DNA from: an uncultured Trueperaceae bacterium
GTDB lineage: Bacteria; Deinococcota; Deinococci; Deinococcales; Trueperaceae
Assembly: GCA_963799485.1 (NCBI GenBank)
Contig: CAWCXJ010000001.1
Span: forward strand, 212,573 to 276,572
Direction of reading: 5' to 3'
Length of the DNA: 64,000 nt
The notes under the pieces were generated by a model. That model was not told the DNA's origin. It did no database searches and worked only from the letters and a program-made list of their open reading frames with translations. Below are positions 969-55,025 of this stretch, in pieces. The position numbers were made by a program, and so were the translations under genes. How positions within the stretch are numbered: position 1 is the first letter of the stretch; each line of letters starts with the position of its first letter.

Positions 969-2348
969 ATGGCGCTACTTATCCAAAACGGCGAAATCAT
1001 CACCGCCGACAAGCGTACCAAAGCCGACATCTACATCGAAGACGAAACGATCACTGAAATCGGTGAAAACTTAGAGGTTCCCGAAGGCACCGAGGTCATA
1101 GACGCTTCAGGAAAATATGTATTCCCCGGTTTTATCGACCCGCACGTGCATATCTATCTGCCGTTTATGGGCACCTATAGCAAAGACACGCACGCTAGCG
1201 GCTCGCAGGCGGCGCTTTTTGGCGGCACCACGACCTTTATCGAGATGTGCGCCCCGGCAGGGAGTGAAGATACGCTCGCGGGTTACCAGCACTGGAAATC
1301 TCTGGCGGAGGGCAACGCCGCGTGTGACTACGCCTTTCACATGGGCGTCACCCGCTTCGATGAGCAAACCGAAATGCAGCTCCGCGAGATTGTCGCGGAC
1401 GGTACGGCGTCGTTCAAGGTCTTTTTGGCCTATAAAGGTGCTTTTAGCTTGGGCGATGAGGAGCTTTACAAAACGTTGACGCTCGCTAAAGAACTCGGCG
1501 TCATCACCACGGCGCACACCGAAAACGCCGAGCTGGTCGCGCAGCTGCAGCAAAAACTTTTGCGTGAGGGCAAAACCGGCCCCGAATGGCACGAACCGAG
1601 CCGCCCGGAATACGTCGAGGCGGACGGCGTGCATCACTTTACGACGTTTCTAGAAGCAACCGGCGCAAGGGGGTATATCGTTCACCTGTCGTGTGAACCG
1701 GCTTTGGACGCAGCTTTGGAAGCGAAGGCAAGGGGCGTCAACGTCTCCATCGAAGCGGTTATTCCCCACCTGTTACTTGACAAAACCTACGCTGAACGCC
1801 CCGACTTCGAGGGCGCAAAACACGTCATGAGCCCGCCCTTACGTGACAAACGCAATCAGGCCGTACTCTGGGAGGCGTTAGAACGCGGCGACATCAGCAC
1901 CGTCGGTACCGACCACGCGCCGTTTGATACGACTCAGAAGGCGATGGGCAAGGGCGACTTTACAAGGATTCCCAACGGCATCCCGGCGATTGAAGACCGG
2001 GTGAACCTGCTCTATACCTACGGGGTCTCGAGGGGCGGCCTAAACATCCACCGGTTTGTAGACGCCGCCAGCACGCAAGCTGCCAAGCTGTTCGGCCTCT
2101 ATCCCCGTAAAGGCACTGTAGAAGTCGGCAGTGACGCCGATTTGGTGATTTACGACCCCGAGTATCGCGGCACATTATCCGTTAAAACGCAGCATATGAA
2201 CGTCGACTACAGCGGCTTTGAAGGCGTTGAAATAGACGGCAAACCCGAAGTCGTGACGGTGCGGGGCGTGGTTCAGGTTAGAGACGGGCAGTTCGTCGGG
2301 GACAAGGCGAGAGGCAAGTTTTTACGGCGTGAGACGCTAGGCGGTTAG
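969..2348 (+). CDS. hydA: Dihydropyrimidinase (D-hydantoinase)
   Basis: PGFIDPHVH metal motif, SFKVFLAYKG carbamylated Lys, SPPLR and GTDHAPF motifs; AGGAGG RBS. Confidence 0.93.
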   Translation: MALLIQNGEIITADKRTKADIYIEDETITEIGENLEVPEGTEVIDASGKYVFPGFIDPHVHIYLPFMGTYSKDTHASGSQAALFGGTTTFIEMCAPAGSEDTLAGYQHWKSLAEGNAACDYAFHMGVTRFDEQTEMQLREIVADGTASFKVFLAYKGAFSLGDEELYKTLTLAKELGVITTAHTENAELVAQLQQKLLREGKTGPEWHEPSRPEYVEADGVHHFTTFLEATGARGYIVHLSCEPALDAALEAKARGVNVSIEAVIPHLLLDKTYAERPDFEGAKHVMSPPLRDKRNQAVLWEALERGDISTVGTDHAPFDTTQKAMGKGDFTRIPNGIPAIEDRVNLLYTYGVSRGGLNIHRFVDAASTQAAKLFGLYPRKGTVEVGSDADLVIYDPEYRGTLSVKTQHMNVDYSGFEGVEIDGKPEVVTVRGVVQVRDGQFVGDKARGKFLRRETLGG

Positions 2349-2349
2349 C

Positions 2350-3162
2350 TTGACGGTGCAAACGCAGTCGCAAAGCCAGAGCCGGCGCTCAGAAAGTTCT
2401 CCGGTTATCTCAATCCGTGACTTGTCGATGGTCTATAAAGCCAGGGCAGGGGAGACAGTAGCGCTGCAAAACGCTAATTTGACGGTTCAGGGGGGCGAAT
2501 TTATCAGCCTCATCGGGCCTTCGGGGTGCGGCAAAACGACGCTTTTACGGCTGATTGCCGACCTCATCGAACCGACCTCCGGTGAACTGCGCGTTGCGGG
2601 CAAAACGCCCCGGGAGGCGAGGGGGGCGCGCGAGTACGGTTACGTCTTTCAGGCTCCGGTGTTATACGAGTGGCGCACCGTGATTAAAAACGTGATGTTG
2701 CCTCTAGAGATCATGCGGTTTCCCAAAGCCGAGCAGCGGGAGCGGGCTTCACGTTTACTCAAACTCGTCGGTCTGCAAGATTTTCACAACCAATACCCGT
2801 TTCAACTCTCCGGCGGGATGCAGCAGCGCGTTTCGATTGCCAGAGCTCTGGCCTTCGACCCCAAGCTGCTCTTGATGGACGAACCTTTTGGTGCGCTCGA
2901 TGAAATCACCCGCGAGAGCATGAACGACGAGCTCCTGCGTATCTGGCAAGAGACGCATAAAACGGTGGTATTTGTGACCCACTCAATCCCTGAAGCAGTT
3001 TTTTTATCGTCGCGTATCGTGGTGATGACGCCGCGTCCCGGCAAGATTGAACGCGTTATCGAGGTGGATTTGCCCTATCCGAGAGACGAAAGCGTGCGCG
3101 AGTCGCGGCGCTTTTTCGAGCTGACGACCGAGGTGCGCGAAGCGCTTAAAGGAATGCACTAG
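2350..3162 (+). CDS. NitT/TauT-family ABC transporter ATP-binding protein
   Basis: Walker A GPSGCGKT, signature LSGGMQQR, Walker B LLMDEPFGALD. Confidence 0.95.
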   Translation: MTVQTQSQSQSRRSESSPVISIRDLSMVYKARAGETVALQNANLTVQGGEFISLIGPSGCGKTTLLRLIADLIEPTSGELRVAGKTPREARGAREYGYVFQAPVLYEWRTVIKNVMLPLEIMRFPKAEQRERASRLLKLVGLQDFHNQYPFQLSGGMQQRVSIARALAFDPKLLLMDEPFGALDEITRESMNDELLRIWQETHKTVVFVTHSIPEAVFLSSRIVVMTPRPGKIERVIEVDLPYPRDESVRESRRFFELTTEVREALKGMH

Positions 3163-3163
3163 G

Positions 3164-5005
3164 GTGCGAAAGAGGGTTTCTGCCTTTTTCCCTGTTTTGT
3201 TAGTCCTTATCGGCCTAATTTTGCTCGGCTATCCACTGGCGCTGCTATTTGGTTTACCTTTGGCTCTAAGAGACATGCGCGATTTGCGAAAGTGGGACAA
3301 AGCGACGGTGACGGCGAGACCGCCACAGCAACTCGAGGGTAGAACGACCTTAACTTTTACCAACGCGGCAGAAAAAGGTGTCCTTGTTCGGGACGGCGCG
3401 CCGCTGCGGATGCTCTATGCTCAGTCGGGTGCAGACGTAACGCTGGACGCAGAACCTACCGCGCCGCTCGTAACCTGGGGTGAAACGTTGACCCCGGTAT
3501 CGGCGACGCTTTACCGGTACCCCGGCGAGTTACCCGACCCTTTGATGCTCTATGTCGGCAATAAGCTCTTGGTAGAGGGCGCGACCCCGGCTGCCGAAAC
3601 GCCCGATGATGTGCGCACGACGTTTACCTTCGGCGACGCGTCCGGCCCTGTGTTGCTGGACGACGAAGTTTTGGCTGAAGGTCAATACACCGTTCAGGGC
3701 GACGCGCTGACTTTTACCAAAGCGCCAAGTTTTGGGAGCGTTTTACGGCGCGTTACGGATGATTACGCGGTTTTAGACGAGGGTAAAAGCACCGTCGTTT
3801 TTACGGCACCGCCGCAGGGAGCGGTGCGCGCCGTAAAGAGTGTCGTCCGGCTTGCCGAGCGCCTTTCGGGAGACGCAGACGGGACGAACCGCACGTTTAC
3901 CTTTGCCCAAACACCCGTCGCCGAGACCGAACCCTACGACGTTTATGTGGACGGTACGCTTTTGTCAAGCGACGATGAGCGCCCGAACGAGCGGGTAGAC
4001 GGTGAGCAGAAAACGTTTACCTTTGAAAGTAGCGAAGGAATCGTTACGGTAGACGGTGCGCCGCAAACCGAGGGCGAAGCCTATACGCGGGACGGTTTTA
4101 CGGTGACGTTTGCCCAAGCGCCCGCCCGTAACGCGCAGCTCCGGCAGTATCCGGGTGCGTTTTTGAGCAATTTTGAAACAGGTGAAGTGCTGCTGGCCCG
4201 GACGCCTCCGGTGGGTGCAACGGTCTGGACGGACGCTTACACGATCTACGCGCAACCGGGCTGCGGGGCAAACGTCATAGCGTGTTTTCTGGCCCTGCCG
4301 CAACATCCGGTGCCCTTTCCGCACTGGATTGCTGCGCGCGTCGTCCCGTTTTTCGATAAGTTTCCGCTCGCTGATGAGCGCAACATCGTTCGGGCGGTGC
4401 TCTATACGGCTGCCGGAACGCTTTCGGCGCTGGCGCTCGGGGCGGCGGTCGGAACGCTGCTGGCGGTGCTGTTTGTGCTGGTGAGGCCCGTGGAGCGCGC
4501 CCTCTTGCCGTGGCTCGTCGCGTCGCAAACGGTGCCGATTATCGCGCTCGTACCGGTGTTGCTGCTGATTTTGGGTAACGCGGGTATCACCATTCAAACA
4601 TCGCTATTACCGACGGCGCTCATCGGCGCGTATATTGCGTTTTTTCCAGTCGTTGTCGGTACCGTAAAAGGTTTGCGCTCGGTTGACCCGCTGTCACTCG
4701 ATTTGATGAAATCCTACGCGGCGACGCCCGTGCAGCTTTTTCTAAAGGTGCGGTTTCCGGCGGCGGTGCCGTTTTTGTTTACCTCGCTCAAACTGGCGGC
4801 GGCGGCGGCGCTCGTCGGGGCGCTCGTCGCTGAAACCGAATCGAACAACCGGCGTGGTTTAGGCTTTCAGATTTTGGGTCAGGTGCAGTCCGGCAACGTG
4901 GCGGACGTGTGGATTTTGCTGCTGATTTCGGCGCTCTTGGGGATTGGGCTCGTCGGGCTCGTCGGTTTGTTGCAACGCTTTATCGCACCGTGGGAGCGTT
5001 CGTGA
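3164..5005 (+). CDS. NitT/TauT-family ABC permease with a ~350-aa extracytoplasmic beta-repeat insertion
   Basis: N-terminal TM helix; long soluble region with DGxxxTFTF / VxVDG / TFxxAP repeats; C-terminal BPD_transp_1 region (SQTVPIIAL, EAA-like loop). Confidence 0.85.
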   Translation: MRKRVSAFFPVLLVLIGLILLGYPLALLFGLPLALRDMRDLRKWDKATVTARPPQQLEGRTTLTFTNAAEKGVLVRDGAPLRMLYAQSGADVTLDAEPTAPLVTWGETLTPVSATLYRYPGELPDPLMLYVGNKLLVEGATPAAETPDDVRTTFTFGDASGPVLLDDEVLAEGQYTVQGDALTFTKAPSFGSVLRRVTDDYAVLDEGKSTVVFTAPPQGAVRAVKSVVRLAERLSGDADGTNRTFTFAQTPVAETEPYDVYVDGTLLSSDDERPNERVDGEQKTFTFESSEGIVTVDGAPQTEGEAYTRDGFTVTFAQAPARNAQLRQYPGAFLSNFETGEVLLARTPPVGATVWTDAYTIYAQPGCGANVIACFLALPQHPVPFPHWIAARVVPFFDKFPLADERNIVRAVLYTAAGTLSALALGAAVGTLLAVLFVLVRPVERALLPWLVASQTVPIIALVPVLLLILGNAGITIQTSLLPTALIGAYIAFFPVVVGTVKGLRSVDPLSLDLMKSYAATPVQLFLKVRFPAAVPFLFTSLKLAAAAALVGALVAETESNNRRGLGFQILGQVQSGNVADVWILLLISALLGIGLVGLVGLLQRFIAPWERS

Positions 5006-15199: not shown

Positions 15200-15406
15200 A
15201 TGCTGGCGAAGATACGAGATGAACGGCTCAGCGCGCTGACAGGACTTACACAGGAGAAGTTCACTGCGCTAACGGAGGGGTTTGCTGAGACGTACGAAAC
15301 CGAGAAGGCGCAAGTGCACGAGCCGGGAGGCAAACAGCGAAGACCAGGCGCAGGACGGAAAGGGAAGCTGCCGAGTGCTGAGGCGAAGCTACTATTTTTG
15401 CTTTAC
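15200..15406 (+). pseudogene. N-terminal HTH fragment of an IS5/ISL2-like DDE transposase, truncated by IS200
   Basis: LSALTGLTQEKF...RRPGAGRKGKL...KLLFLLYY pattern; ends at the IS200 left end and does not resume afterwards. Confidence 0.7.
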
Positions 15407-15974
15407 TATTCCAAGCGTAAGGTTCAAGCCACCGCCTTTAGGCGGTCAGATTTCATCTGCCAGCCTTAGGGGATGGAGTATCGCTGTGGGAGTCACACGG
15501 TTTTCAACATCGAGTACCATTTTGTCTGGGTGACGAAGTACCGCTACAAGGTACTCAAGGGTGACGCTGCCGAGCGAGTGCGAGAACTGGTACGGCAAAC
15601 CTGCGAGGCGTTCGAGATACGGATACTGAGTGGGGTAGTCAGTAGCGAGCATGTACACATCTTGGTAAGCGCTCCGCCGACGCTGGCCCCAAGCGAGATC
15701 ATGCGGCGAATCGAGGGACGAAGTGCGAGCAAGCTGTTCGAGGAGTTTCCAAAGCTGAAAGGGCGATATTGGGGCAGACACTTCCGGGCGAGGGGATACT
15801 TTTATGCGACCGTCGGGCAGGTAACGGAGGAGATGATCAAGAGCTACTTGGAACACCACTTGGAACCGACTCGGGACGACAACTTCAAGACGGAGGACTA
15901 ACGGGTCTACGACCCGTATCCCGACTTTCAGGCGTCGTCTCAAACCCTCCGACTTTAGTCGGTGTGTTGTTTAG
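15407..15974 (+). mobile_element. IS200/IS605-family element, tnpA only (copy 1)
   Basis: 568 bp, near-identical to 61545-62112; both copies follow CTTTAC; subterminal hairpins ACCGCCTTTAGGCGGT and CCGACTTTAGTCGG; no TIR or TSD. Confidence 0.9.
15473..15901 (+). CDS. tnpA: Y1 HUH transposase TnpA
   Basis: YHFVWVTKYR, HVHIL (HUH), catalytic Tyr in IKSYL. Confidence 0.95.
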   Translation: MEYRCGSHTVFNIEYHFVWVTKYRYKVLKGDAAERVRELVRQTCEAFEIRILSGVVSSEHVHILVSAPPTLAPSEIMRRIEGRSASKLFEEFPKLKGRYWGRHFRARGYFYATVGQVTEEMIKSYLEHHLEPTRDDNFKTED

Positions 15975-16053: not shown

Positions 16054-16740
16054 TCAGCTGCTCAAAAAGTCTCGGTGGTCAAACCCCAACAGCTCAGCTA
16101 GACGCGTAACCGTTACGTCGGCTGCCGGATACGGCTCGGTCTCTTCGAGGTCGAAAGCGTAATGACCCTGACGTACAAAAACGGTCGTAAGGCGTTCGCC
16201 CCATACATTTTTTACGGCGCTTAACAGCCGGAGTTTGTCGTCGACCATGACGTAATGTGTAGCAGGATAGAGGCGTTCGACCTCGGCAAGTTCTTTTTCT
16301 TTGTGGATATAAATCAGTACCTCGCCGTTTACGGCGTCGTAAAGCCCCGAACGCCTGATTTTATGCGGTTGAAAGACTACATCACCATCCGACAAGATGA
16401 CCGCTCGGCCCAATGCTTGCAAGTGCGTGACGACCTCGAGCGCCCCCGGATAGAGCCGTTCACGAAACGGGTAATCGATTAAAAACTCGGAGACGCTCAT
16501 GAGGCACTGAGTATGCGAATGCTCGAGCCGGTAGCGTTGCAGCGTCTCCAAATAGTCGGCGTAGCCGAGTTCTCGGCGCAGGTCTGCAAACAGCTCGAAG
16601 TAGCGCTCGCGGGCGGCGGGGCCGAGTTCAGCCTCCAAGTTGGCCCGGAGGTCGGCGGTTACCCGGTCGTTCTCGAGCAGTGTATTATCTACATCGAGCA
16701 AAAAGACGGTGCTTTCGGGTCGGGTGTTTATAGCAGTCAT
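16054..16740 (-). CDS. HAD-family hydrolase
   Basis: DVDNTL motif I, LSDGD and MVDDK motifs. Confidence 0.88.
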   Translation of the reverse strand: MTAINTRPESTVFLLDVDNTLLENDRVTADLRANLEAELGPAARERYFELFADLRRELGYADYLETLQRYRLEHSHTQCLMSVSEFLIDYPFRERLYPGALEVVTHLQALGRAVILSDGDVVFQPHKIRRSGLYDAVNGEVLIYIHKEKELAEVERLYPATHYVMVDDKLRLLSAVKNVWGERLTTVFVRQGHYAFDLEETEPYPAADVTVTRLAELLGFDHRDFLSS

Positions 16741-16809
16741 CCTAAACGCAGTTTAAGGTATTTCGGTGCAGCCTCGCTCGTAGCTGCGCCGTAAAACAAC
16801 CAGAGGCCA

Positions 16810-17547: not shown

Positions 17548-17578
17548 AAAAAAGAGGCAGCTAGACTGCCTCTTTTTT
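17548..17578. terminator. Bidirectional intrinsic terminator
   Basis: AAAAAAGAGGCAG-ctaga-CTGCCTCTTTTTT. Confidence 0.8.
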
Positions 17579-17603
17579 GTATCGTAAGGGCAAGTTGGAG
17601 GGT

Positions 17604-18266
17604 ATGAAAACAATTCTGATTGTCGAAGACGAAACGCGGCTCGCCGAGATTTTAGGCGAGTACCTAAAGCGTGAAGGGTTTCGTACCGAACGGGCCAAAG
17701 ACGGGCAGCGGGCGTTGGAGCTGTGGCGGGCCGCGCGCCCCGACCTGATTTTGCTCGATCTGATGCTGCCGCTGCTAGACGGGCTCGAGGTCGCGCGGCG
17801 TGTCCGGGCCGAATCGGAGGTACCGATTATCATGCTTACTGCCCGTGATGAAGAGGTCGATAAACTCGTCGGCCTGGGCCTCGGCGCAGACGATTACGTC
17901 GTTAAGCCCTACAGCCCGCGCGAGGTCGTCGCCCGCGTCAAGGCTGTTTTACGGCGTGCAAACGGTTTAACGCAAACGGGGCCGGTCACAGTAGGGGCTT
18001 TGGAGGTCGACCTCAGCACCTACCTGACCCGCTGCCACGGGGAAGAGATTACGCTGACGCCGAGCGAAGTACGGCTTTTAGCCCACCTCGCCAAAGAACC
18101 GGGGGTTGTCCGGAGTCGCACCGAACTTTTGGGCGTCACCGGTGACGACGCTTTTGCCGACCTCCGCAGTGTAGACGCGCACGTAAAAAATATCCGGCGT
18201 AAACTCGGTGCTTGTGGAGAGCAGCTCGAGACCGTGCGCGGCGTCGGCTACAGGTTGCGTTCCTAA
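17604..18266 (+). CDS. OmpR/BaeR-family response regulator
   Basis: VEDE, LLDLMLP, GADDYVVKP and wHTH ETVRGVGYR motifs. Confidence 0.95.
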   Translation: MKTILIVEDETRLAEILGEYLKREGFRTERAKDGQRALELWRAARPDLILLDLMLPLLDGLEVARRVRAESEVPIIMLTARDEEVDKLVGLGLGADDYVVKPYSPREVVARVKAVLRRANGLTQTGPVTVGALEVDLSTYLTRCHGEEITLTPSEVRLLAHLAKEPGVVRSRTELLGVTGDDAFADLRSVDAHVKNIRRKLGACGEQLETVRGVGYRLRS

Positions 18267-19754: not shown

Positions 19755-19967
19755 ATGGCTATCGTCAAGGTGATTGAAGTGTTGGCGCAGTCTGACAAGA
19801 GTTTCGATGACGCCGTAAAAGTCGCTTGCGCCGAAGTAACCAAAACAACGCGTGGGGTACAGAGTATTTATGTCAAAGAGATGCAGGCGGTGGTCGAAAA
19901 CGATCAGATAGTCAAGTACCGCGTCAACGCCAAAGTCTCGTTCGTCGTCGAGGAAGAGTCTCGGTAA
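19755..19967 (+). CDS. Dodecin-family flavin-binding protein
   Basis: KVIEVLAQS..SFDDAV...YRVNAKVSF; 70 aa. Confidence 0.9.
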   Translation: MAIVKVIEVLAQSDKSFDDAVKVACAEVTKTTRGVQSIYVKEMQAVVENDQIVKYRVNAKVSFVVEEESR

Positions 19968-20248
19968 GCTTTTTGAAACTACGTTTACACGGTCGATTTT
20001 AGGGCGTAGTTCTCAGGTGGATTCCGCTGATTTCGCGAGTCCCGCGCCGTAAAATCTCTGCCGCACGCGAATTGCCGGTGCTTGCAAAACTGTAAAACGT
20101 CGACGCCTGCTCCGTTTCTCGTGAGGCCGAACATACCTGCTCAACCGCAAAGGTCGGGACGGCTCGAGCCCCGCCAAAGTGCGTGTGCGCTGCTGCACCC
20201 GTGCCGACGTAGCTGCGCCGAAAGCGCAGCCGTGTGCTACAAAAGGGT

Positions 20249-22942: not shown

Positions 22943-23269
22943 ATGAGTAAAGGCTTGCTGAGAGACAACTTCGACCTCATCTTGCTCGCGATTTTGGAGG
23001 ACGGCCCCAAGTACGGCCTAGAGATTATCGCCGAGGCGCGGGGCCGTACGGACGGTTACTTCGACTTTAAGGAAGGGAGCCTCTACCCGGCTTTGCACCG
23101 GCTCGAGAAAGCCCGCCTTGTCGAGGCCGAGTTTGCGCCCTCAGACACGGGTGGGCCGCGCCGCCGCTACTACCGCCTGACGGACGCGGGTAAGGGGCAA
23201 CTCGCCGTAAAACGTGAAGCCTGGGAGCGCTTTAACGGCGCAGTCGGGGCGCTCTGGGAGGCGAAATGA
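22943..23269 (+). CDS. PadR-family transcriptional regulator
   Basis: YGLEI, EGSLYPALHRLE and RRRYYRLT motifs. Confidence 0.93.
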   Translation: MSKGLLRDNFDLILLAILEDGPKYGLEIIAEARGRTDGYFDFKEGSLYPALHRLEKARLVEAEFAPSDTGGPRRRYYRLTDAGKGQLAVKREAWERFNGAVGALWEAK

Positions 23270-24486
23270 AACCCGAACCGGTAGAAACGTGTGTTGAAAC
23301 CTACCTACGGCGGGCGACGCGGGGGCTTTGGGGCAAGAAGCGGCTCGAGGTCAGGGAAGAGTTGGCGGCGCACCTTGAGGAGCGGGTGATGGCCTACCGC
23401 ATCGGCGGGTTAGGGGAGACGGACGCCGTAAAAAAAGCGCTGGCTGAGCTTGGTAAACCGCAGGAGGTGAGTTTCGGGATGGCACGGCTTTATACCTTTC
23501 CAACTTTGTTAGGTTCGGGCGCAGTGTTAGCGGCAGCATTTGTGCTAGTGGTGGCGCTTTTACCGAAAGGTGCTGCACAGTCGCCGGTTATAGGTTCGTT
23601 TTTCTGGCCTTCACCGAAATGTACGGCAGCTCTCAGAACTGATTCGGTGCTCGCGGCTTTCAACTCATGCCAGAGGTTGGACAACAATCTTTGGCTCGAC
23701 ACAAAAGCGTTGACAAAAACGTTAGAAGCGCAGGGCGTAACGGTTCGCCAAGAAGATAAAATGCTGACGCTTACGTTTCCCAGCCTGCCTCCAGTTGAAG
23801 TTCCTTTGGATTCTTCGTCACTGCTCGTTAATGATTCGGGTGAGGTAGTATGGTTACTCGATTCAGGTGACATAATTAAAGGTACTGAAATCTCCGCTGT
23901 TCCCAGTGCTCTTTCACTTTGGGATTTGTTGGAAGCCGTAGGTAAGCAGTCTAAACTACCAATCCGTCTTGAAGGGGATAAGAATCCTACCGTACATCTT
24001 GGTGAGGTTTCCTTTCAGGTCGGAACTAAACTGAGGTCGGTGAACAGTGATGACTTCTACGATAACTATCTCGAGAACGTTTTCTTCAGAGATTTGGTTG
24101 ATCCAATCGAGATGAAGCAAGGTTTTTTTGCTATAAATTCGCGTGTTGATACGGACACGCCATTAGAAGAGGCAGAACTCGGCCTGAAGGCAGCAGAATC
24201 CGGTGTTTACGGTATCATCACAATCCTTGCACCTGATACGCTGGATAGATATTTGTCGCGTATCATAGACCCGTTCGCTGCGGACTTCTATGCCTCATTT
24301 GAAGTCGTTCGGGTAGAAGATGGCAACATGTTTTCTGCTAAACTTCCCGAAAAACCGGTTCGTTTCGTCAAGGCATTTAGCGCAGATAAGAATATTGGTT
24401 CTGCGGTCATAGTTCGGCTCGCCGGCAGTTCTGAAACAGGCGGTTGGTATGAGGTCGTTTCACCCGACCGCATCACCGTTCAGTAG
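23266..24486 (+). CDS. Permease-prefix-1/HAAS domain membrane protein with a divergent extracellular C-terminus
   Basis: YLRRATRGLWG..REELAAHLEE..ALAELGKP N-terminus, one TM; coupled to padR. Confidence 0.8.
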   Translation: MKPEPVETCVETYLRRATRGLWGKKRLEVREELAAHLEERVMAYRIGGLGETDAVKKALAELGKPQEVSFGMARLYTFPTLLGSGAVLAAAFVLVVALLPKGAAQSPVIGSFFWPSPKCTAALRTDSVLAAFNSCQRLDNNLWLDTKALTKTLEAQGVTVRQEDKMLTLTFPSLPPVEVPLDSSSLLVNDSGEVVWLLDSGDIIKGTEISAVPSALSLWDLLEAVGKQSKLPIRLEGDKNPTVHLGEVSFQVGTKLRSVNSDDFYDNYLENVFFRDLVDPIEMKQGFFAINSRVDTDTPLEEAELGLKAAESGVYGIITILAPDTLDRYLSRIIDPFAADFYASFEVVRVEDGNMFSAKLPEKPVRFVKAFSADKNIGSAVIVRLAGSSETGGWYEVVSPDRITVQ

Positions 24487-34451: not shown

Positions 34452-34510
34452 GATTCCTCCAGGGGGGTAGATAGATGTTTGCGGTTACGGGCCGAGTTGC
34501 TGTGTTCTAT

Positions 34511-35473: not shown

Positions 35474-35498
35474 GCTTTACTCTCCTTTCCGTCGCCCC

Positions 35499-38704: not shown

Positions 38705-38712
38705 AAACACTC

Positions 38713-42269: not shown

Positions 42270-45200
42270 CGCTTGCTTCGGTCAAGTCTTGCAGGGCGTG
42301 AACGGTTAAAGGCTGCTTCTGAAGGGCGCTTAGGGCTTTGACAAACCAGCGGGCGGCGTCGGCGGTGGTGACGTAAGGAACGCCGGACTCGAGCCCCCTT
42401 CTCAGCTCCTGGGTATGGTCGGTGTCAATGAGCAAATCGTACTCGGGTTCCGCAGAGGTTGACTCGGTGATGAGAGTAAAACCGAGGGTCTCGAGCTCAG
42501 CTTTTACGGCGTCTAAACCGTCACCTAAAACGAGCGCGGTACCCGCCTTCGGCAGCTTGACGTTCGCGCCCAGTAGCGCTTTGGCGTACGCCATATACGG
42601 GTCGGGGTCGGTGCCCATACTTTCACCCGTCGAGCGCATCTCCGGCCCCAACACCGGTAAGATATTCTTAAACTTGAGAAACGGCAAGACGACCTCTTTG
42701 GCGCTGTAAAACGTCGGTTTCGGCGTTTCGGTAAAGCCCAGCTCCTCGAGCGTCTTTCCGGCGGCGATGAGCGCAGCGTACTTGGCTAAAGGGTGCCCGA
42801 TGGCTTTGGACAGGTACGGCACGGTGCGGCTGGCTCTCGGGTTCGCCTCAATCACGAGGACTTGTCCGTCTTTAATCACGTACTGAATGTTGATGAGGCC
42901 GCGCACGCCAATCGCCTCAGCAAGTTTGACGCTGTAGTCGAGCAGGGTCTGGACAACTTCCGCGCTCAAGTTTACGGGCGGCGTGATGCACGCCGAATCG
43001 CCCGAATGGACGCCCGCGCCCTCGATATGCTCCATCACACCTGCGACGACGACCCGTTCGCCGTCGGCGAGGGCGTCCACGTCCACCTCTTGCGCCCCGG
43101 CGATAAAGTCGTCAACTAAAATGGACGGATTTCCCGGCAGTTCGGCGTAAATCTCGGCTAAATAGCGCTCGAGCTCCGCCTCGCTGTAAACCACCTGCAT
43201 CGCCCGCCCACCCAGCACAAAAGACGGCCTGACCATCACCGGGTAGCCGATGCCTTCGGCAAGTTTTACGGCGTCTTCGGGTTTTACGGCGACGCCCCCG
43301 GCGGGTTGCGGAATGTCTAGGCGTTCGCAAAGCCGGTGAAACGAGTTGCGGTCTTCAGCTTCAAAAATCGCCTGCGCGGGTGTTCCCCAAATCGGCACGC
43401 CCGCGTCGGTCAAGGGCTGCGCGAGTCTTAACGGCGTTTGCCCGCCGAGTTGGACAATCACGCCCACCGGGTTCTCGCGGTCAACGATGTTGAGGACATC
43501 CTCGAGCGTCAGCGGTTCAAAATAGAGCCGGTCGGCGGTGTCGTAATCCGTCGAGACCGTTTCCGGGTTCGAGTTGACCATGATGGTCTCGAAGCCCGCC
43601 TCTTTAAGTGCCCAGACCGCGTGAACGGTCGCGTAGTCGAACTCGACGCCCTGCCCGATGCGGTTGGGGCCGGAGCCTAAAATCACCACTTTGGGCCGGT
43701 CGGAGGTCTCCACCTCGTCTTCCCACTCATACGTCGAGTAGTGGTACGGCGTGTACGCCTCGAACTCGGCGGCGCAGGTGTCTACGGTTTTGTAGACCGG
43801 GGCGCTGTGATGCGCCAACCGCCACTTTCTCATGTTTTTAACGTCGGCACCCGTCAGCGCCGCCAAATCCGCGTCGGAAAAACCGAAGCGTTTGACCTCG
43901 CGCCACGTCTCCCAGTTCCAGCTTTCCGGGTTGCCGAGCGCCGTAATCTCGTGTTCTACGTCGGTAATCTCCTTGAGTTGCGACAAAAACCACGGGTCGA
44001 TGGCGGTTTTGTCGTGCAGAAACCGGACACTTTTGCCGCGCCGTAAAAGTTCTAACACCGCCGGGAGCCGTTTAGGGGTCGCGGTGAGGCGGGCCTCGAG
44101 CCCCCCCAAACTCAAATCCTTCGTTTCTGTCCTCACGTCGGACTCCAAAGACCGGAGCGCCTTTTGCAGCGACTCCTTGAAGGTGCGCCCAATCGCCATG
44201 ACCTCACCGACCGAGCGCATCTGCGTACCTAACAAGTCCGTCGTGCCGGGAAACTTCTCAAAGGCAAACCGGGGAATCTTCGTCACCACGTAATCAATCG
44301 AGGGCTCAAAGGCCGCTTTGGTCTCCTGCGTGATGTCGTTCGGCAGCTCATCCAGGTGATAGCCGACTGCCAAGAGCGCCGCAATTTTGGCTATCGGATA
44401 GCCTGTCGCTTTCGAGGCCAGCGCCGACGACCTCGAGACCCGTGGGTTCATCTCAATCACAATCGTGTCACCGTTTTTGGGGTTCACGGCAAACTGAATG
44501 TTCGAGCCGCCCGTATCCACCCCGATTTCGCGGATAATCGCAATCGAATAGTCGCGCAGCCGCTGATACTCCTTGTCGGACAAGGTTTGCGCCGGGGCCA
44601 CCGTAACCGAATCGCCGGTATGCACGCCCATCGGGTCTAAGTTTTCTATCGAGCAGATGATGACCACCGTATCGTTATGGTCTCTCATGACCTCGAGCTC
44701 GTACTCTTTCCAACCCAACACCGACTGCTCAATCAGGGCCGAATGCACCGGCGAATTATGGAGCGCCCCCCGCACGATGTCCCGAAACTCGGCCTCGTCG
44801 TAGGCAATCCCGCCGCCCGTCCCGCCGAGCGTAAACGAAGGCCGGATGATGGCCGGATACCCAATCGTTTCGGCAAAAGCCAGCGCTTCACCCAAAGACG
44901 TAATCATCTTCCCGGCAGGTGTTTTGATGCCGATTTTTTCCATCGCTGCCTGAAACAGTTGCCGGTCTTCGCCCTTGTTGATGGCGGCGTAGTTTGCGCC
45001 GATGAGTTCGACGCCGTAACGGTCTAAAATGCCGTCTTCAAACAGGGTTTTGGCTAAATTGAGCGCGGTTTGACCGCCTAGAGTCGGCAACAACGCGTCG
45101 GGTCGTTCGGCGGCAATCACTTTTTCCGCAACTTCGGGGGTGAGGGGTTCTAGGTAAGTCCTGTCCGCTACCTCCGGGTCGGTCATAATCGTTGCGGGGT

Positions 45201-45348: not shown

Positions 45349-45461
45349 ACCAAGAAGCGACCATAACACGCATAAAGATGCAGGGTGGTACCTGCCTCTA
45401 AAAGGGCGACGCTACCGTAAACGGGCGTTTTACGGCGATTTTCGAGTATCATGCTTTTACG

Positions 45462-48523: not shown

Positions 48524-50742
48524 ATGCACGCAACGCACAGGCTATCTAGGTTCGCGCCGCTCCTGCTCCTGTCAACGCTGACAGTCCTGTTGACAGCCTG
48601 CCCCGGTATTTCTGGCGGCGGCGGCAGCGGCACGCCGCAAATCACGAGTTTTACGGCAAACCCGTCCACCATCGCAGCGGGTACGGGGTCGCTCCTTAGC
48701 TGGACGGTAACAGGCAGCCCGACGAGCCTGGATATCAGCGGCGTCGGCACGGTTACCGGCACCAGCGTTACTGTCAACCCAACCGTGACGACAAGCTACA
48801 CCCTGACCGCGAGCAACAGCAGCGGCAGCGACCAGGAGACCGTAACCGTGACCGTCGGCGGCACCACCGGCGAAGACGGCCTCCCGCCCAGCGGCACCTT
48901 CGGCGTAAGCGCAACCCAGACCGGCACCTTCCAGAACGACGCGGGCAGCAACATCACCAGCGCCAGCGACCCGCGCGTCGTCACCGTCGCCGCAGGCGGC
49001 ACCTTTTACGCCCAGGCGTCTTACAGCGACCCCGGCGGCATTTCCAACATCTCCATCGAGCTGAGAAACAGCAACCCCCCCGGACTCGCCGCGCCCCTCG
49101 TACAAGGCCAGTCGGTCAGCGGCTTTACCCTGGGCGCTGAACTCAACGGTTGTGTGCTCGACGGCACCCAGACCGCCGTCACCTGCGTCTACCCGATTAC
49201 GGTTGATGCCGGCACCCCGAACATCAGCGCGTTGCCAAACTCCGGCAGCGAATTCGCCTACGTCTTCCGCACGGTGGTCACGGACGCGGCGGGGAACTTC
49301 GTCGATCAGCCGCCACGTGGTTATGTGGCAGTCGGCGGCTCCAGCGGTGGCGGCGGTGGCGGCGGTGGCGGCGGTGGCGGCGGTGGCGGGGGCGGCGGTG
49401 GCGGCGGTGGCGGCGGCGGTGGCGGCGGTGGCGGCGGTGGCGGCGGTGGCGGCGGTGGCGGCAAACTGCGCCAACCATCAATTCGTTTACGGCAAGTCCG
49501 ACAACGATTAGCAGTGGTCAGAGCAGCACGCTTTCATGGAGCGTTTCCGGCACCGTAACTTCGCTCAGCATCAGCGGCGTTGGCACTGTGACGGGTACGT
49601 CAACGACAGTGAGACCAACGACGACGACGACCTACACGCTCACGGCAAGCAACGGCTCAGCGTCAACGACGAAAACGGCAACAGTGACGGTTAATAGTGG
49701 TGGCGGAGGCCCGGTAGCCCCGAAAATCACGAACTTCAAAGCTACACCGACGAGCATCGCAGCAGGTGGAAGCTCGACGCTTTCGTGGACAACGACGGGC
49801 ACGGTTACTTCTTTATCCATCGATAATGGTGTCGGAGCCGTCACTGGTACATCTAAAGTCGTAATGCCATCAGATACCACGACTTATACGCTTACGGCAA
49901 GAAATGGTTCAGCATCAACGACGGCTAAAGTAAAAGTTACTGTGAAAGACGACAATAGTGGTGGTACAGGTGCAACGAAGATTACTTCTTTTAACGCTAC
50001 CCCTTCGAAGGTCACATATGGCGGAAGTATCAACTTCACTTGGTCACTGAGTGGTTCTCAACCATCAGAGGTGGAAATCTTCCAAGAGGGTAATCCTACA
50101 CCTGTTTTGACCAATCTTCTTGGGAAAACTTCGGATTCTAGTTTCAAGCCTACAGCCACCGCAAACTACTTCCTTCAGGTAACGACAAGCGATAATGATG
50201 TACTTCGCAGCAGCCCCGTGAAGAAAGTGAGCGTTGCACCTGCCGTCAATCTTGAAGCTGACCCCGACAATGTTGCTACTGGCGCTACAACCAGGCTTTC
50301 TTGGAGTATAAGTGGGCCATTCACGGCAGCGACGATTACCGGCACTGGGGTTAACCAAGCAATAACGACGCCAACTGGTAGTTTGACTAGCCCTGCTGTT
50401 ACCAGCAATACGACATACACGCTTACAGCAAGCAATGGTGCTGGGATTAGCAACACCGATACAGCTGATGTTGTAGTTGGTCCTGATGTATCAAACTTTC
50501 GCGCAACACCAAATCCGGCTGATGTGGGGCAAGGGGTTACATTCCAGTGGAACGTAACTAATCTCAGCTCTGGAAGCATAGTAATCACCGGCCCCAACTC
50601 TTTTAGGAGAGCCTTGTCTGCCAGTCAAAGAAGCACCGTTCTAGGGAATGTACAACTTGTAAACGAAGGCTTGTACACGATAACGGTCACAAATGCTTCG
50701 GGAGACGATGACACAGCCCAAGTCACGCTAGATGTGAACTAG
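48524..50742 (+). pseudogene. Surface lipoprotein with Ig/PKD-like repeats and a poly-Gly linker, split by a 1-nt frameshift at ~49461
   Basis: Lipobox LTAC; repeats I.SF.A.P..I..G....LSW....YTLTA on both sides of the break; the shifted frame reads QTAPTINSFTASPTT straight after the Gly run and runs into ORF 49588-50742. Confidence 0.8.
49346..49462 (+). repeat. (GGTGGCGGC)n tract encoding 39 glycines
   Basis: 117 nt of GGN codons in 9-nt units. Confidence 0.95.
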
Positions 50743-50768: not shown

Positions 50769-50805
50769 CTCGAGCCCTCCCACACCGGGGGCTCGAGCCT
50801 TTTTT
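50769..50805 (+). terminator. Intrinsic terminator of the lipoprotein gene; overlaps repeat R1
   Basis: CTCGAGCCC...GGGCTCGAG stem followed by T6. Confidence 0.7.
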
Positions 50806-50838
50806 ACGGCGACTTTAGGGGCTCGAGGGGTTTTTACA
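50791..50838 (+). repeat. Cassette-bounding direct repeat R1
   Basis: GCTCGAGCCTTTTTTACGGCGACTTTAGGGGCTCGAGGGGTTTTTACA. Confidence 0.9.
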
Positions 50839-50839
50839 G

Positions 50840-51187
50840 TTACCGTCTGATTCGCAACTTGCCGTTCTGATAGACCGCAAACCGACCGGTTATCTCGCCC
50901 GCATAGTTTTTGGTAATGGCCTTGACAACCTCTACTTTTTCGTCACCCGTGGCAGCCTCCAGACGCAGCAGCAGCACCCCGGCGTGGGTACGCCTCGGGC
51001 GGTAGACCAGTTCACCAAAATCTTTGTCCATCGTCACGACAAGGCGCGCTTCAGAAACGGCAATATCAAGAATGTCGCTGTCGGGCAACCTCGGGTCTAG
51101 GTCACGCACGGCTTTGACGTCGTGTCCTTGCGCTGCTAAAAATTGTTCTGCTTTTCGTCCAACACCAACGTCGAACAAGAACTTCAC
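50840..51187 (-). CDS. DUF5615 PIN-like toxin (VapC45-like)
   Basis: MKFLFD, GHDV, D.DIL..A..E.R..VT.DKDFGEL motifs. Confidence 0.88.
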   Translation of the reverse strand: MKFLFDVGVGRKAEQFLAAQGHDVKAVRDLDPRLPDSDILDIAVSEARLVVTMDKDFGELVYRPRRTHAGVLLLRLEAATGDEKVEVVKAITKNYAGEITGRFAVYQNGKLRIRR

Positions 51188-51435
51188 GCCGCGTCGGTAA
51201 TAGGAATAACGCGGTCTTCGGCGACAAGCTGACCGGCGTAGAGTAGAGCGGCGGCAATATCGTCTCGGCTCAGCTCGGGATAATCGGCTAGCAGCTCTGC
51301 TTCACTGACTCCGTGGGCAAGTGCCAGCAAAAGCTGTTCTACGGTAATTCTCAACCCCCTTAAGGTTGGTTTACCGCCCATAAGTCCCGGAATCAGGGTG
51401 ATGCGCTCGAGCAGCGCGGCGTCGTGCGTGGTCAT
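51184..51435 (-). CDS. DUF433 antitoxin
   Basis: RIT..PG.MGGKP.LRG.RITV..L...ELLADYPEL...DI.AAL.YA. Confidence 0.92.
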   Translation of the reverse strand: MTTHDAALLERITLIPGLMGGKPTLRGLRITVEQLLLALAHGVSEAELLADYPELSRDDIAAALLYAGQLVAEDRVIPITDAA

Positions 51436-51453
51436 GGCGTCAGTATAGCCGAC

Positions 51454-51500
51454 GCTCGAGCCTTTTTTACGGCGGCTTCAGGGGCTCGAGGGGTTTTACA
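51454..51500 (+). repeat. Cassette-bounding direct repeat R2
   Basis: GCTCGAGCCTTTTTTACGGCGGCTTCAGGGGCTCGAGGGGTTTTACA. Confidence 0.9.
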
Positions 51501-51573
51501 AAGCTCAGACTATCGTGGTTTAGGTCGGGCTCAAGTTGAGATACATGTGTGTGAGCAAATGGTTAAATGCCAG

Positions 51574-51898
51574 GTGGCCCTTGTTGACGAAATCCGGGCA
51601 AAAATCGCCCTAGGTCAGTATGAATTCTCGCGGCACGCTGTTGACCAAACGATTTTGCGCCGAATTACACTTACAGAAATACGCGAAGTTACATCGAACG
51701 CTGAACTGCTCGAGTACTACCCAAACGATAAATACGGCCCAAGTTGTTTAATTCTGGGTTTTACCGAAATCTCGAAGACCGCTTCACGTTCAGTGTAGCT
51801 ATCCATCACGCACACTCATTAAAATCATCACACTTTACGAACCCGACCCGGCATTATGGTTTAACTTTAGAGTGAGGAGGCAAAAAGGTGATGCCTGA
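51574..51898 (+). pseudogene. DUF4258 toxin-like gene with a +1 frameshift at ~51768
   Basis: FSRHA..., EYYPNDKYGPSCLILGFT, then in a shifted frame RPLHVQCS..IITLYEPDP..W. Confidence 0.8.
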
Positions 51899-52103
51899 AG
51901 AATTTGTAGAACGCACCGTTACTTATACGCTCGAGGTGCAAGGTAAACTCGTTGTGGTCGAGAATGTGCCTGCTCGGGTCAGCCTCCAAACAGGCGAGCA
52001 GCTTTTTGCTCCGGAGACAGTTGAAAAACTTCAGCGTATGGCGTGGGGGCAGAGAGAACCGAAACGGACTTTGCAGACGCCGGTATACGACTTCTTGGCG
52101 TAA
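51891..52103 (+). CDS. YgiT-type (MqsA-N-like) antitoxin partner lacking the Zn-binding cysteines
   Basis: VVVENVPARV...GEQLF motif; GAGGAGG RBS; canonical partner of DUF4258. Confidence 0.8.
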   Translation: MPEEFVERTVTYTLEVQGKLVVVENVPARVSLQTGEQLFAPETVEKLQRMAWGQREPKRTLQTPVYDFLA

Positions 52104-52140
52104 AAAACTTGCGTATTGGCTTGGGGCTTCTCGAAGCGGG

Positions 52141-52186
52141 GCTCGAGCCTTTTTACGGCGGCTTTGAGGCGTCTCGAGGGGTTTAC
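52141..52186 (+). repeat. Cassette-bounding direct repeat R3 (more diverged)
   Basis: GCTCGAGCCTTTTTACGGCGGCTTTGAGGCGTCTCGAGGGGTTTAC. Confidence 0.85.
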
Positions 52187-52822: not shown

Positions 52823-53416
52823 ATGGTGATTCAAGCTTTACGTGTATCCGGGTTTTTGTTCTTTGTGGCGTCGCTGTCGGCAGCGGTGTTGGCGGGGTGC
52901 AGTACGACGTCTGCTGTACCGACCGACCCTGCTCCGGGTACTCCGGCGTGCACCTATGAGGGTGGAAGCTTGCCGAGTCTCGAGGTGGCGGCGGGCGAGA
53001 CCTGTGTGCTAAACGGTACGACGGTTCAGGGTGATATCACTCTGGCTTCCGGTGCCAGCCTAGACGCGTCCTTGGGGGTCGCGGTGGGGGGGGATATTCA
53101 GGGACAGGGTGCAGCGAACGTCTTGCTGGACGGCACAACTGTTGCTGGCAAGCTTCAGCTGGGGGGCGGCGGCGCGGTCGCTGTCACCGACTCGAGCGTC
53201 GAGGGTCGGCTTCAGCTTGCCGGTAACCGCGGGGTTGTAAGCGTTTCCGACACCTTTATCGGTGGCGACCTGCTGCTTTTACAAAATACCGGCGGTGTTT
53301 TCGTCGATTACAACGTCGTCACCGGCGACGTGCAGTGTGAACAAAACGACCCCGCACCGCTGGGTGCAGACAACGAGGTCTCAGGTAGCAAAGGAGGTCA
53401 GTGCCGCGCGCTCTAG
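52823..53416 (+). CDS. Lipoprotein with a right-handed beta-helix-like Gly/Val repeat region
   Basis: AAGGAG RBS; lipobox LAGC; V.G.(I/L) repeats. Confidence 0.75.
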   Translation: MVIQALRVSGFLFFVASLSAAVLAGCSTTSAVPTDPAPGTPACTYEGGSLPSLEVAAGETCVLNGTTVQGDITLASGASLDASLGVAVGGDIQGQGAANVLLDGTTVAGKLQLGGGGAVAVTDSSVEGRLQLAGNRGVVSVSDTFIGGDLLLLQNTGGVFVDYNVVTGDVQCEQNDPAPLGADNEVSGSKGGQCRAL

Positions 53417-53451
53417 CGGTTTGAGGTGCGCGTTTCAGGCGTCGGTCACGG

Positions 53452-53735
53452 GTGGACGGTATTAGTCACGGTATTGATCCCGTTATCTTGGGGTACCGGC
53501 ACCATCTGCCCGTTGACACCGTAAAAATCGACCGCTCGTTTATCCGGGCGATGGGCGGCGGCCCGCGAAACCCGGAGGTCGTCCGAACCGTTATCTCGGT
53601 GGCGCAAAACCCGGGCCTCGTCGTCTCCGAAGGGGTCGAGTCAGCCGCGCAGGTCAACCCCTTGCGGACTTTAGACGGCCTTTACGCACGGGGATTATTC
53701 TGCTCCAAACCCGTAGAGCTTGCCCGCGCGCGCAG
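53452..53735 (+). pseudogene. Degenerate EAL (c-di-GMP phosphodiesterase) domain fragment
   Basis: LPVDTVKIDRSFI, VSEGVE and G.....KP remnants; lacks the N-terminal part of the EAL domain. Confidence 0.7.
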
Positions 53736-55025
53736 CTACGCAGCAGGTGACGAGGTGGTAGGTGTAAATACGACCTCGCCGCGTATGAAGCTCAGGAGGG
53801 GCCAGCCGGTGAAGCTTTGACCCGCCCACGGGCTGAATTTGGCCTTGCTCTTAAAGGTTTCGGGTTCGACCGCACGTTTGGCCTCGAGGTCGAGCACGAC
53901 CAAATCGGCCCTCTGACCGGGCTCGAGCGTTGGGGGTGTCCAACCCATGACGTCGGCAGGGCCGCCTTGCAGAAGCTCTAGAAGTGCCGCCAAGGCTAGT
54001 CCGTCCCGTTTTACAAGCTCGGTATAGAGCAGCGGAAACGTCACCTCGATATTGCCGATGCCGAAGGGTGCGGCCTCCATGTCACGCTCTTTTTCGGCCC
54101 ATGTGTGCGGCGCGTGGTCGGTGCCGATACTGTCCACGACGCCGCGTTTTACGGCGTCACGCAAGTAAGCGACGTCTTCGGCGGTGCGGAGCGGTGGGGC
54201 GACCTTAAAGGTGGGGTCGAAGGTCTCGAGCGCTGCGTCGGTCAGCGTCAGGTGATGCGGCGTGACTTCGCAGGTAACGGGCGCGCCCTGCGCCTTGAAA
54301 AACTCCACGACCTGCATTCCCCGTTTCGACGAGACGTGCGCGATATGAACCCGCGCCCCGGTCATGGTAGCGATTTCGCAGTCGCGGTAGATCATCGCGG
54401 CTTCGGCGGCAACAGGATTGCCCGGTAAGCCGAGCCGCTGCGAGACCATACCCTCGTTCATCACGCCGTTTTGCCGTAAACCGGGGTCTTCGGAGTGCGT
54501 TTGAATGACCAAACCGAGTTCGGCGGCGTATTCGCACGCGTGGCGCATCAGGTGCCCGTCTTGTACCGGAATACCGTCGTCGGTAATCATCACCGCGCCT
54601 GCGTCTTTAAGTGCGGCGAAGTCGGTGAGTTCTTTTCCCTCAAGGCCGCGGCTCAAGGTGGCAGCGGGGCGCAACCGGGCGAAACCCAAACGTTCGGCTT
54701 TATGAATCAGCGACGCCACCATCCCGGGGTCGTCTACGGGTGGAGTGGTGTTCGCCATCGAAACGACCATCCCGAAACCGCCGGCGGCGGCGGCGGCAAG
54801 TCCTGAAGCTAAATCCTCTTTTTGTTCCTGCCCCGGTTCGCGCAGGTGGGCGTGAAGGTCGATAAAGGCGGGTGTGACGAGCTTGCCCGCCGCGTCAAAG
54901 GTTTTATCGACCTCGCCGCCCAGGTTGACGCCTTCGATGAGCCCGTCTTTAAGGTAGAGGTCGTGGGCGCCGTGGTTCCCCCTTGCGTCTTGCAGGTGGG
55001 CATTTTTTAGCCGGATGCGGGTCAC
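53736..55025 (-). CDS. pyrC: Dihydroorotase (type I)
   Basis: [27 protein letters not shown] and GTDHAPH motifs; GTG overlaps the ridA stop. Confidence 0.95.

Follow-up and report, generated by a model that had tools for sequence, protein, structure and literature searches.

A short, asymmetric DNA word is strongly over-represented in the genome of an uncultured Trueperaceae bacterium (genome G000), from which a stretch of 64,000 nucleotides (the window, G000:C1:212573-276572) is taken. The word, TTTTACGGCG, is built around the 7-bp core CCGTAAA; it is enriched at the level of DNA, shows no replication polarity, is confined to three species of one genus and occupies derived sites that are still changing, in a genome that encodes competence genes. 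The over-representation is genuine and strong, and the literature searched contained no description of it. By analogy with the pattern best known from Neisseria and Haemophilus, the word may mark "self" DNA for gene exchange, and our preferred reading of the sequence, held tentatively, is that of a tag resembling a DNA uptake sequence and accumulating by molecular drive. Protein-binding or repair drive, or a mutational bias, could leave much the same footprint.

Abundance and sequence unit of the word

The assembly of G000 comprises 3,655,195 bases in 15 contigs at 59% GC, with a completeness of 99.99% and a contamination rated 4.63%. The window holds 18 exact copies of the 10-mer on both strands, 12 on the + strand and six as CGCCGTAAAA, precisely the copies and coordinates listed in an initial annotation of this DNA. 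In 100 dinucleotide-preserving shuffles, the window yields 0.41 ± 0.64 copies (largest, 3); the chance estimate of about 0.1 given in that annotation was therefore somewhat low, yet the over-representation holds. Sites within one mismatch of the 10-mer number 52 against 8.59 expected, and the six near-matches named earlier are all real, although five of them start one base earlier than given (2543, 5358, 9696, 34526 and 48386), only that at 11394 standing as written. Genome-wide, the 10-mer occurs 540 times and is the commonest 10-mer of the 3.66 Mb, while CCGTAAA, GCCGTAAA and the 9-mer CGCCGTAAA are counted 3274, 1752 and 1113 times, respectively, the core reaching a density of 0.90 per kb. 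Low-order Markov models predict 6-55 copies of the 10-mer in G000; a maximal-order model accounts for it, indicating that the enrichment accrues across the whole word.

Counts of every single-base variant delineate a strict 7-bp core, CCGTAAA (positions 3-9 of the 10-mer), in which any substitution brings the count near the Markov expectation, and soft flanks. Before the core, C is preferred over T, followed by any base except T, and A or C is preferred after it, giving [C/T][not T]CCGTAAA[A/C] as the best form. The 10-mer initially taken as the unit is thus over-represented, yet the true unit is the 7-bp core with its soft flanks. Outside the word, the context is of background composition with nothing conserved, arguing that the word is not embedded in a longer repeat.

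A crude, self-trained gene prediction placed 83.8% of the genome in 3275 genes. Within genes, the 10-mer occurs 436 times, as compared with 40.6 ± 6.4 in 20 within-gene synonymous-codon shuffles, a 10.7-fold excess; for the 9-mer, 930 copies are observed and 119 are obtained in the shuffles (7.8-fold), and for CCGTAAA 2660 and 716 (3.7-fold). The word is present in all five reading frames that avoid a stop codon, and the LRR and AVK readings initially annotated are two of these five. Codon pairs that spell the word are inflated (TTA-CGG 3.9-fold, CTT-TTA 5.2-fold, CGT-AAA 2.9-fold and GTA-AAA 2.5-fold), and about 5% of all TTA and GTA codons fall within CCGTAAA cores; the word is still being written into genes at some codon-choice cost. 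Codon usage in G000 is itself odd for 59% GC, with TTT and AAA accounting for 60% and 61% of the Phe and Lys codons, respectively, while G- or C-ending codons prevail for most other amino acids.

Could the word be an artefact of codon or dipeptide usage, or a dispersed repeat family? Codon effects do exist in this genome, where 69% of the sites of another abundant word, CTCGAG, lie in the CTC-GAG frame, and three of the window copies belong to a single 44-nucleotide (nt) repeat. However, the 10.7-fold excess over the synonymous shuffle, the occurrence in all five open frames and, at the same density, in intergenic DNA, and the random flanks all speak against it, and the other 15 of the 18 window copies lie in no repeat family. 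A repeat of the repetitive extragenic palindrome (REP) or miniature inverted-repeat transposable element (MITE) type was likewise rejected, the flanks being at background and about 84% of the copies coding. We give an artefact next to no credence, in keeping with the initial proposal of a signal at the DNA level; the enrichment is confined neither to the window nor to one repeat family.

Clade restriction and turnover of sites

The family was surveyed in 21 relatives and then in a sample of 121 genomes across 36 genera, including one unpublished genome, G045, on which no result depends. Among the 121, the 10-mer is found in hundreds of copies only in G000 (540) and in two sister species, G005 (435) and G001 (196), all of one genus. 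The other three genomes of the genus hold 16-25 copies, near the reversed-word control, and the next highest genome of the survey has 60 copies against a control of 20. In 400-kb samples per genome, ranked de novo by k-mer, CCGTAAA is observed 403 times against an order-2 expectation of 82 in G000 (59% GC), 318 against 79 in G005 (57% GC), 197 against 83 in G001 (57% GC) and 41 against 33 in G002 (68% GC), a core enrichment graded over the three species (4.9-, 4.0- and 2.4-fold). The word heads the de novo list in G005, and in G001 its enrichment runs from 2.4-fold for the 7-mer to about 8-fold for the 10-mer. No alternative "dialect" word appeared in the 400-kb sample of G002, the sole word-free congener sampled de novo. 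CarB of the window shares 93% identity with that of a metagenome-assembled genome (MAG) deposited as "MAG: Truepera sp.", as compared with 76% and 74% for MAGs of Trueperaceae and Deinococcota, respectively, which makes the host a Truepera-like member of the Deinococcota. A 23-kb locus from the 93% relative holds 16 core sites and the next four loci 0-3, though GC differs among them. Word-bearing genomes are lower in GC (57-59%) than the word-free G002 (68%) and G003 and G004 (62-63%, from single loci).

Since only five genes are common to all three partner samples, site turnover was followed in pairwise orthologue sets (about 200 pairs per partner genome) and in 42 triplets. Against G002, G000 has 209 core sites to 18, with nine shared (4%, control 7-mers 16%). 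Against G005, the counts are 199 and 194, and 100 sites (50%) are shared; control 7-mers are shared at 30 ± 10%, and 2.6% of controls reach 50%. Against G001, 55 of 199 and 116 sites are shared (28%, control 7-mers 25%). The 42 triplet alignments (G000, G005, G001) give the patterns 111:7, 110:8, 101:3, 011:2, 100:14, 010:8 and 001:6, so that each genome has private core sites, and 42% of core positions are shared as compared with 24% for eight control words of similar composition. Amino-acid identity under the word is a little lower than elsewhere, both toward G002 (0.676 vs 0.742) and toward G001 (0.757 vs 0.835).

The carB gene of the window illustrates this turnover; the 18 window copies, with coordinates and strand, are as follows.

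2320..2329, + strand: exact TTTTACGGCG, inside the amidohydrolase gene 969-2348
3741..3750, + strand: exact copy inside the ABC permease gene 3164-5005
16210..16219, + strand: exact copy, antisense in open reading frame (ORF) 16054-16740
16787..16796, - strand: exact copy, CGCCGTAAAA on the + strand, intergenic
17947..17956, + strand: exact copy in ORF 17577-18266
19811..19820, - strand: exact copy, CGCCGTAAAA on the + strand, in a short called ORF
20045..20054, - strand: exact copy, intergenic
23203..23212, - strand: exact copy in a short called ORF
23424..23433, - strand: exact copy in ORF 23266-24486
42502..42511, + strand: exact copy in carB (gene on the - strand), there read GCC GTA AAA
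43264..43273, + strand: exact copy in carB, found in G000 alone, where Val replaces the Ala of G005, G001, G003 and G004
43282..43291, + strand: exact copy in carB, shared with G005 alone, via amino-acid changes
44039..44048, - strand: exact copy in carB, in G000, G005 and G001
45428..45437, + strand: exact copy, intergenic, just upstream of carB
50802..50811, + strand: exact copy in the loop of the 44-nt hairpin repeat 50791-50834
51465..51474, + strand: exact copy, situated in the hairpin loop of repeat 51454-51497
52151..52160, + strand: exact copy within 52141-52184, the third and degenerate copy of the repeat
54147..54156, + strand: exact copy, antisense within the amidohydrolase ORF 53736-55493

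Site sharing in carB is nested: one site is found in G000, G005 and G001, three are found in G000 and G005 only, and one each is found in G000 and in G005 alone. At the trio-wide site (44039), the word-bearing genomes read CTT TTA where the three word-free congeners read TTG CTG, CTG CTC or CTT CTG, a synonymous Leu-Leu change that brings in a rare codon. The three sites restricted to G000 and G005 arose with amino-acid changes; the copy at 42502 is also present in G005 and absent from G001, G003 and G002, G004 being unaligned there. The site private to G005 required four synonymous changes in seven bases of an otherwise conserved stretch. Overall, the sites are derived and their distribution is nested on the tree; they continue to change in every lineage, in some cases via rare codons.

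Such gains could in principle come from a context-dependent mutational bias, a polymerase or repair trait peculiar to the lower-GC clade that involves no recognition function. The lower GC of the word-bearing genomes relative to sampled congeners, the even spread of the word regardless of DNA function and the frequency of gains at synonymous positions would all fit. However, a seven-position context is far sharper than known mutational contexts, some sites took three or four clustered changes (the G005-only carB site, for example), conservation exceeds that of control words, and resident mobile DNA is unaffected. Taken together, we regard a mutational bias as improbable.

Polarity, placement and word-poor DNA

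The initial annotation had put forward a Chi- or KOPS-type signal (KOPS, FtsK-orienting polar sequences) as a candidate, with replichore skew as the check. The two strands of G000 carry nearly equal numbers of the 10-mer (263 and 277). The GC skew of G000 is weak, leaving a skew-based replichore test alone underpowered, and the 8-mer divides 394 to 312 by skew sign (56:44). We therefore also estimated polarity from the excess variance of forward minus reverse counts in bins, which requires no replichore map and gives p = 0.50-0.58 in 20-, 50- and 100-kb bins. The probable origin lies at G000:C7:174791-184914, where parA, gidB and gidA diverge from dnaA, dnaN, eno and pyk, a region of 10 kb without CCGTAAA; reading outward from dnaA, 8-mer orientations number 134 and 149, the two sides being alike (Fisher p = 0.11-0.40). 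RecC (PF04257) was not found in this 99.99% complete genome, AddAB lying outside that search.

In favor of a Chi-like recombination hotspot, or of a polar word of the KOPS or another architecture-imparting kind, CCGTAAA is over-represented in resident DNA and missing from acquired islands, and its copy number and density resemble those of Chi in E. coli. Like the word, Chi and the KOPS and AIMS (architecture-imparting sequences) are over-represented 7-8-mers of resident chromosomal DNA, but they are strongly co-oriented with replication and CCGTAAA is not. The p values at every bin size, the origin-to-terminus counts about dnaA, a skew split of only 56:44 and the lack of a RecC match all run counter to a polar signal, which was rejected for want of any polarity, of a switch across dnaA and of RecC. 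Such a role is very improbable, and this part of the initial annotation does not stand.

The word is spread evenly over coding and intergenic DNA, 15.6-18.9% of its copies being intergenic as compared with 16.4% of the genome, and about 84% coding. Divergent spacers carry 1.14 cores per kb, convergent spacers 0.92 and tandem spacers 0.89 and 0.97, with both orientations in every class, so that the word has no link to promoters. As first annotated, the copies at 50802, 51465 and 52151 fall within repeats that bound a toxin-antitoxin-like region: three copies of the 44-nt repeat, spaced by 663 and 687 bases in window 50791-52184, flank two paired genes, DUF433 and DUF5615 (PIN-like), together with small neighboring ORFs that include a DUF4258, and the region looks like an array of toxin-antitoxin-like cassettes. 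The repeat has CTCGAG in its stems, the motif in its loop and a terminal T-run, and its fold is not unusually stable (z = -0.96). Placement in hairpin loops, an idea taken from these three repeats, fails genome-wide, with only eight such cases. Elsewhere in the window, a run of 9-base GGC/GGT repeats (49306-49485), glycine-rich if translated, lies within overlapping ORFs at 48524-49558.

Core-free gaps of at least 7 kb number 29, as compared with 6.2 expected. Ten of the 29 were annotated. Four carry integrase, transposase or conjugation genes: a phage-type integrase in one, a Mutator-family transposase together with an integrase in another, and near-identical TraG/SNF2/transposase segments in the other two. 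Two are metal-resistance islands of 64-66% GC; a third metal-related gap, at 60.5% GC, has a multicopper oxidase amid housekeeping genes. Two more, the origin region and lpxC-mreB, consist of conserved housekeeping DNA, and one holds polysaccharide genes. The near-identical segments, G000:C9:9001-22000 (L171) and 27001-39000 (L172), both without CCGTAAA, each encode an SLFN/AlbA_2 protein, a 1170-aa SNF2 helicase with NOV_C, a TraG-type coupling protein and transposases, and look like parts of a conjugative element.

Two whole contigs, C2 (88 kb) and C3 (53 kb), have 0.25-0.27 core sites per kb, a background level, vs 0.90 for the genome. C2 begins with a temperate-phage or integrative module: genes for a serine recombinase, RusA, a RepB primase, an S24 repressor and a recombination directionality factor lie within its first 20 kb. 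C2 and C3 may be extrachromosomal, prophage or mis-binned DNA, and together they hold all three C5-cytosine methyltransferase matches of the genome. The absence of copies from insertion sequence (IS) elements, noted at the outset, holds for the one IS-like block that was delimited, a 410-base identity between 15401-15810 and 61539-61948 that contains neither CCGTAAA nor CTCGAG, the ends of the whole IS being undelimited; a 60-base probe from this block matches four copies in the genome. Among viral contigs, 39 carry motif pairs, none joining the GC of this clade (57-60%) with many CTCGAG sites; they look like chance pairs or tandem repeats, and none resembles a phage of the clade.

CTCGAG density is near the genome level in most word-poor regions. 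This palindrome is itself hyper-abundant in G000, with 7252 sites (about 2 per kb; about 1.8 per kb in intergenic DNA), 5.9-fold over the order-1 expectation and 3.5-fold over the synonymous-shuffle null; 50792-50797 and 50826-50831 are examples in the window. Its enrichment is about 5-fold in G001 and G005 and about 2-fold in G002, it is abundant in other Trueperaceae-like loci, and unlike CCGTAAA it stays near-normal in most motif-free islands and in the phage-like contig. Many other palindromic hexamers are very strongly avoided in G000, with observed/expected ratios of 0.03 for TTTAAA, 0.07 for GGCGCC, 0.08 for GTTAAC and CGGCCG, 0.09 for GGATCC and GCATGC, 0.13 for CGATCG and 0.15 for CCGCGG, which suggests a long history of many restriction systems.

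Possible recognition by the uptake machinery or by other proteins

A short asymmetric word is what a type III restriction-modification system would recognize, and in G000, G005 and G001 a PF01555 Mod gene lies beside Res, a pairing not found in G002-G004. A recognition site of a clade-shared restriction-modification or methylation system (type III, IIG or I) is nevertheless quite improbable. The three Mods fall into three PADLOC type III subfamilies (PDLC03646, PDLC03632 and PDLC03636) and share only 24-26% identity, along portions of their methyltransferase region; their contexts differ, a transposase-type integrase adjoining the G005 operon and a phage-associated P63C lying near that of G001. 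For the two type I HsdS of G000, only partial matches of at most 41% were obtained, and neither is closely matched in G005 or G001. Restriction targets are normally avoided rather than enriched, and enrichment of the word is contrary to this usual avoidance in a genome that strongly avoids many palindromic hexamers. With no common specificity determinant (Mod or HsdS) across the word-bearing genomes, a shared restriction-modification specificity was rejected. The G000 system belongs to a defense island, G000:C4:96001-114000 (L229), with a Mod of 1084 aa and a Res of 1076 aa, a DrmD-like SNF2 helicase of 966 aa, a WYL regulator and an adjoining bacterial topoisomerase IB; the type III systems of G005 and G001 are unrelated to it.

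A second possibility is that CCGTAAA is the target of another clade-specific DNA-binding or DNA-processing protein, kept by selection or biased repair with no role in uptake; a nucleoid-associated protein, a self-marker for a defense nuclease, or a sequence-directed mismatch or gene-conversion activity would be examples. The sharp 7-bp profile implies recognition by a protein, sites are conserved beyond control words, density is uniform over coding and non-coding DNA, no pilin follows the word, and there is no terminator association, unlike for the DNA uptake sequence (DUS) of Neisseriaceae and the uptake signal sequence (USS) of Pasteurellaceae. However, no candidate protein was identified, and we know of no precedent for protein binding that maintains an unpolarized and non-palindromic word at a density of about 1 per kb. 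The integrated elements and the phage-like contig lack the word and still bear the family-wide CTCGAG signature, a weak argument against a process that is purely intracellular and acts on all resident DNA. Very-short-patch repair was rejected, since no Vsr gene was found and the neighbors expected from deamination are not depleted, transition neighbors standing at 0.9-1.8 times expectation. On balance, we consider this explanation unlikely, though clearly less so than a mutational bias.

The uptake reading, in contrast, comes first for its match to a short asymmetric word with a sharp profile, present on both strands, absent from acquired DNA and limited to a young clade; we know of this combination of features for uptake sequences only. 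Under this reading, some step of transformation in the three-species Truepera-like clade would favor word-bearing DNA, either when it is bound on the surface of the cell or within the periplasm, or during later processing. Conspecific fragments with the word would then have a greater chance of uptake and recombination, mutations toward a new or better word would spread by molecular drive, and words would build up on both strands wherever chromosomal DNA is long resident, inside genes and outside them.

G000 encodes adjacent ComEC and ComEA, as well as DprA and a PilQ-type secretin. A type IV pilin cluster adjoining lepA (G000:C5:83763-88792; locus L086 5763-10795) contains one short pilin signal, a 722-aa DUF4900 protein and three minor pilins. 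This hypervariable cluster is far less conserved than the typical protein: between G000 and G005, the minor pilins and the DUF4900 protein share 52-56% identity, as compared with a protein median of 86%. Toward the word-free G002, their identity is 43-57% (49-57% for the minor pilins alone), about as low as toward G005, while searches in G001 gave weak matches or none. No conserved ComP-like receptor was found among the cluster proteins, of which the pilins and DUF4900 were compared. The check for the motif in relatives and for competence pilins, suggested at the outset, thus came out in part as an uptake sequence would have it, with two sister species bearing the word and competence genes present, but no pilin tracks the word.

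Several observations weigh against the uptake reading. The enrichment is roughly 8- to 40-fold across the nulls used, and classical 9-10-mer uptake words are enriched at least 100-fold. Inverted pairs in terminators, initially named as the expectation for an uptake sequence, were not seen: pairs within 60 bp comprise 26 direct and 14 inverted ones, and inverted repeats of at least 7 bp flank 5.1% of 9-mer sites vs 4.4% of random ones, giving no link to hairpins or terminators. Word spacing is clustered rather than even, with a coefficient of variation of 1.24 (62 gaps below 100 bp vs 35 expected, and 25 above 15 kb vs 8 expected), and motif density shows no monotonic trend with codon-usage typicality (0.81, 0.96, 1.03, 0.88 and 0.71 per kb by quintile). 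Circulating elements of the family would lack a young clade word under any reading, and absence from mobile DNA is therefore not diagnostic. Control searches with the competence families also match Thermus thermophilus and Deinococcus radiodurans, so that the competence genes do not discriminate. A pilin or DUF4900 as co-distributed receptor was rejected, their identities tracking no word pattern. Transformation as the biased step and the existence of a sequence-specific receptor are both points that we infer.

The likeness to DUS and USS is nevertheless broad. These too are short non-palindromic words in hundreds to thousands of copies (1113 for the 9-mer here), found on both strands, in several coding frames and in intergenic DNA; they are lineage-restricted and missing from acquired islands or genes without homologues in relatives, sit at less conserved residues (68% vs 74% identity here) and combine a graded core and flank with a host that has a type IV pilus and ComEA/ComEC machinery. 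In the excerpted account of Findlay and Redfield, three genomes carry 1,471, 765 and 1,892 copies of their uptake words, 65%, 49% and 34.5% of them in ORFs, and USS and DUS are likewise missing from acquired-type DNA and placed at less conserved residues; about half of DNA uptake-enhancing sequences (DUES) are described, in the text consulted, as lying in terminators. The present word differs in belonging to Deinococcota, in being unrelated in sequence and in its weaker enrichment. It also differs in showing no conserved ComP-like minor pilin and no dialect in G002 and, with further weight against an uptake role, in having no excess in terminators or inverted pairs and a coding share equal to the coding fraction of the genome, without intergenic bias.

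Another point of comparison is the highly iterated palindrome HIP1 (GCGATCGC) of cyanobacteria, which is described, in the parts of the sources consulted, as hyper-abundant, conserved beyond expectation and of obscure primary function (PMC5861425), as linked to orphan methyltransferases (PMC4390886), and as aiding natural transformation in a homology- and methylation-dependent manner (preprint 10.1101/2024.09.10.611283). CCGTAAA resembles it as a hyper-abundant, conserved word with an obscure primary role, but HIP1 is palindromic, a symmetry that CCGTAAA lacks, and the word-bearing genomes yielded no methyltransferase in common. Within G000, CTCGAG would make the better HIP1 analogue; it is not mentioned in the HIP paper searched.

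A 2025 preprint and a 2025 review, in the sections consulted, describe uptake sequences only for Neisseriaceae and Pasteurellaceae. Among the results listed, our literature searches with Truepera or Deinococcus named no uptake sequence for Deinococcota; the initial annotation likewise knew of no description of the signal for this lineage. With somewhat more reserve than we attach to an uptake-like tag as such, we propose that the word could be a third independent DNA uptake sequence and the first outside Proteobacteria, one whose receptor would not be a conserved ComP-like pilin.

How uptake sequences arose and what they serve is debated, with molecular drive and selection for self-recognition as the alternatives, and for the USS the receptor has yet to be identified. 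Model species of Deinococcota are highly transformable, and a recent case limited to one clade would be valuable in this phylum. If the word is not an uptake signal, an unexplained sequence-specific process has written about 3,000 copies of a 7-mer into a genome. If it is one, it would represent an independent origin in a new phylum, with word-free sister species as natural controls, and this young, graded clade could show how uptake specificity and its genomic footprint originate.

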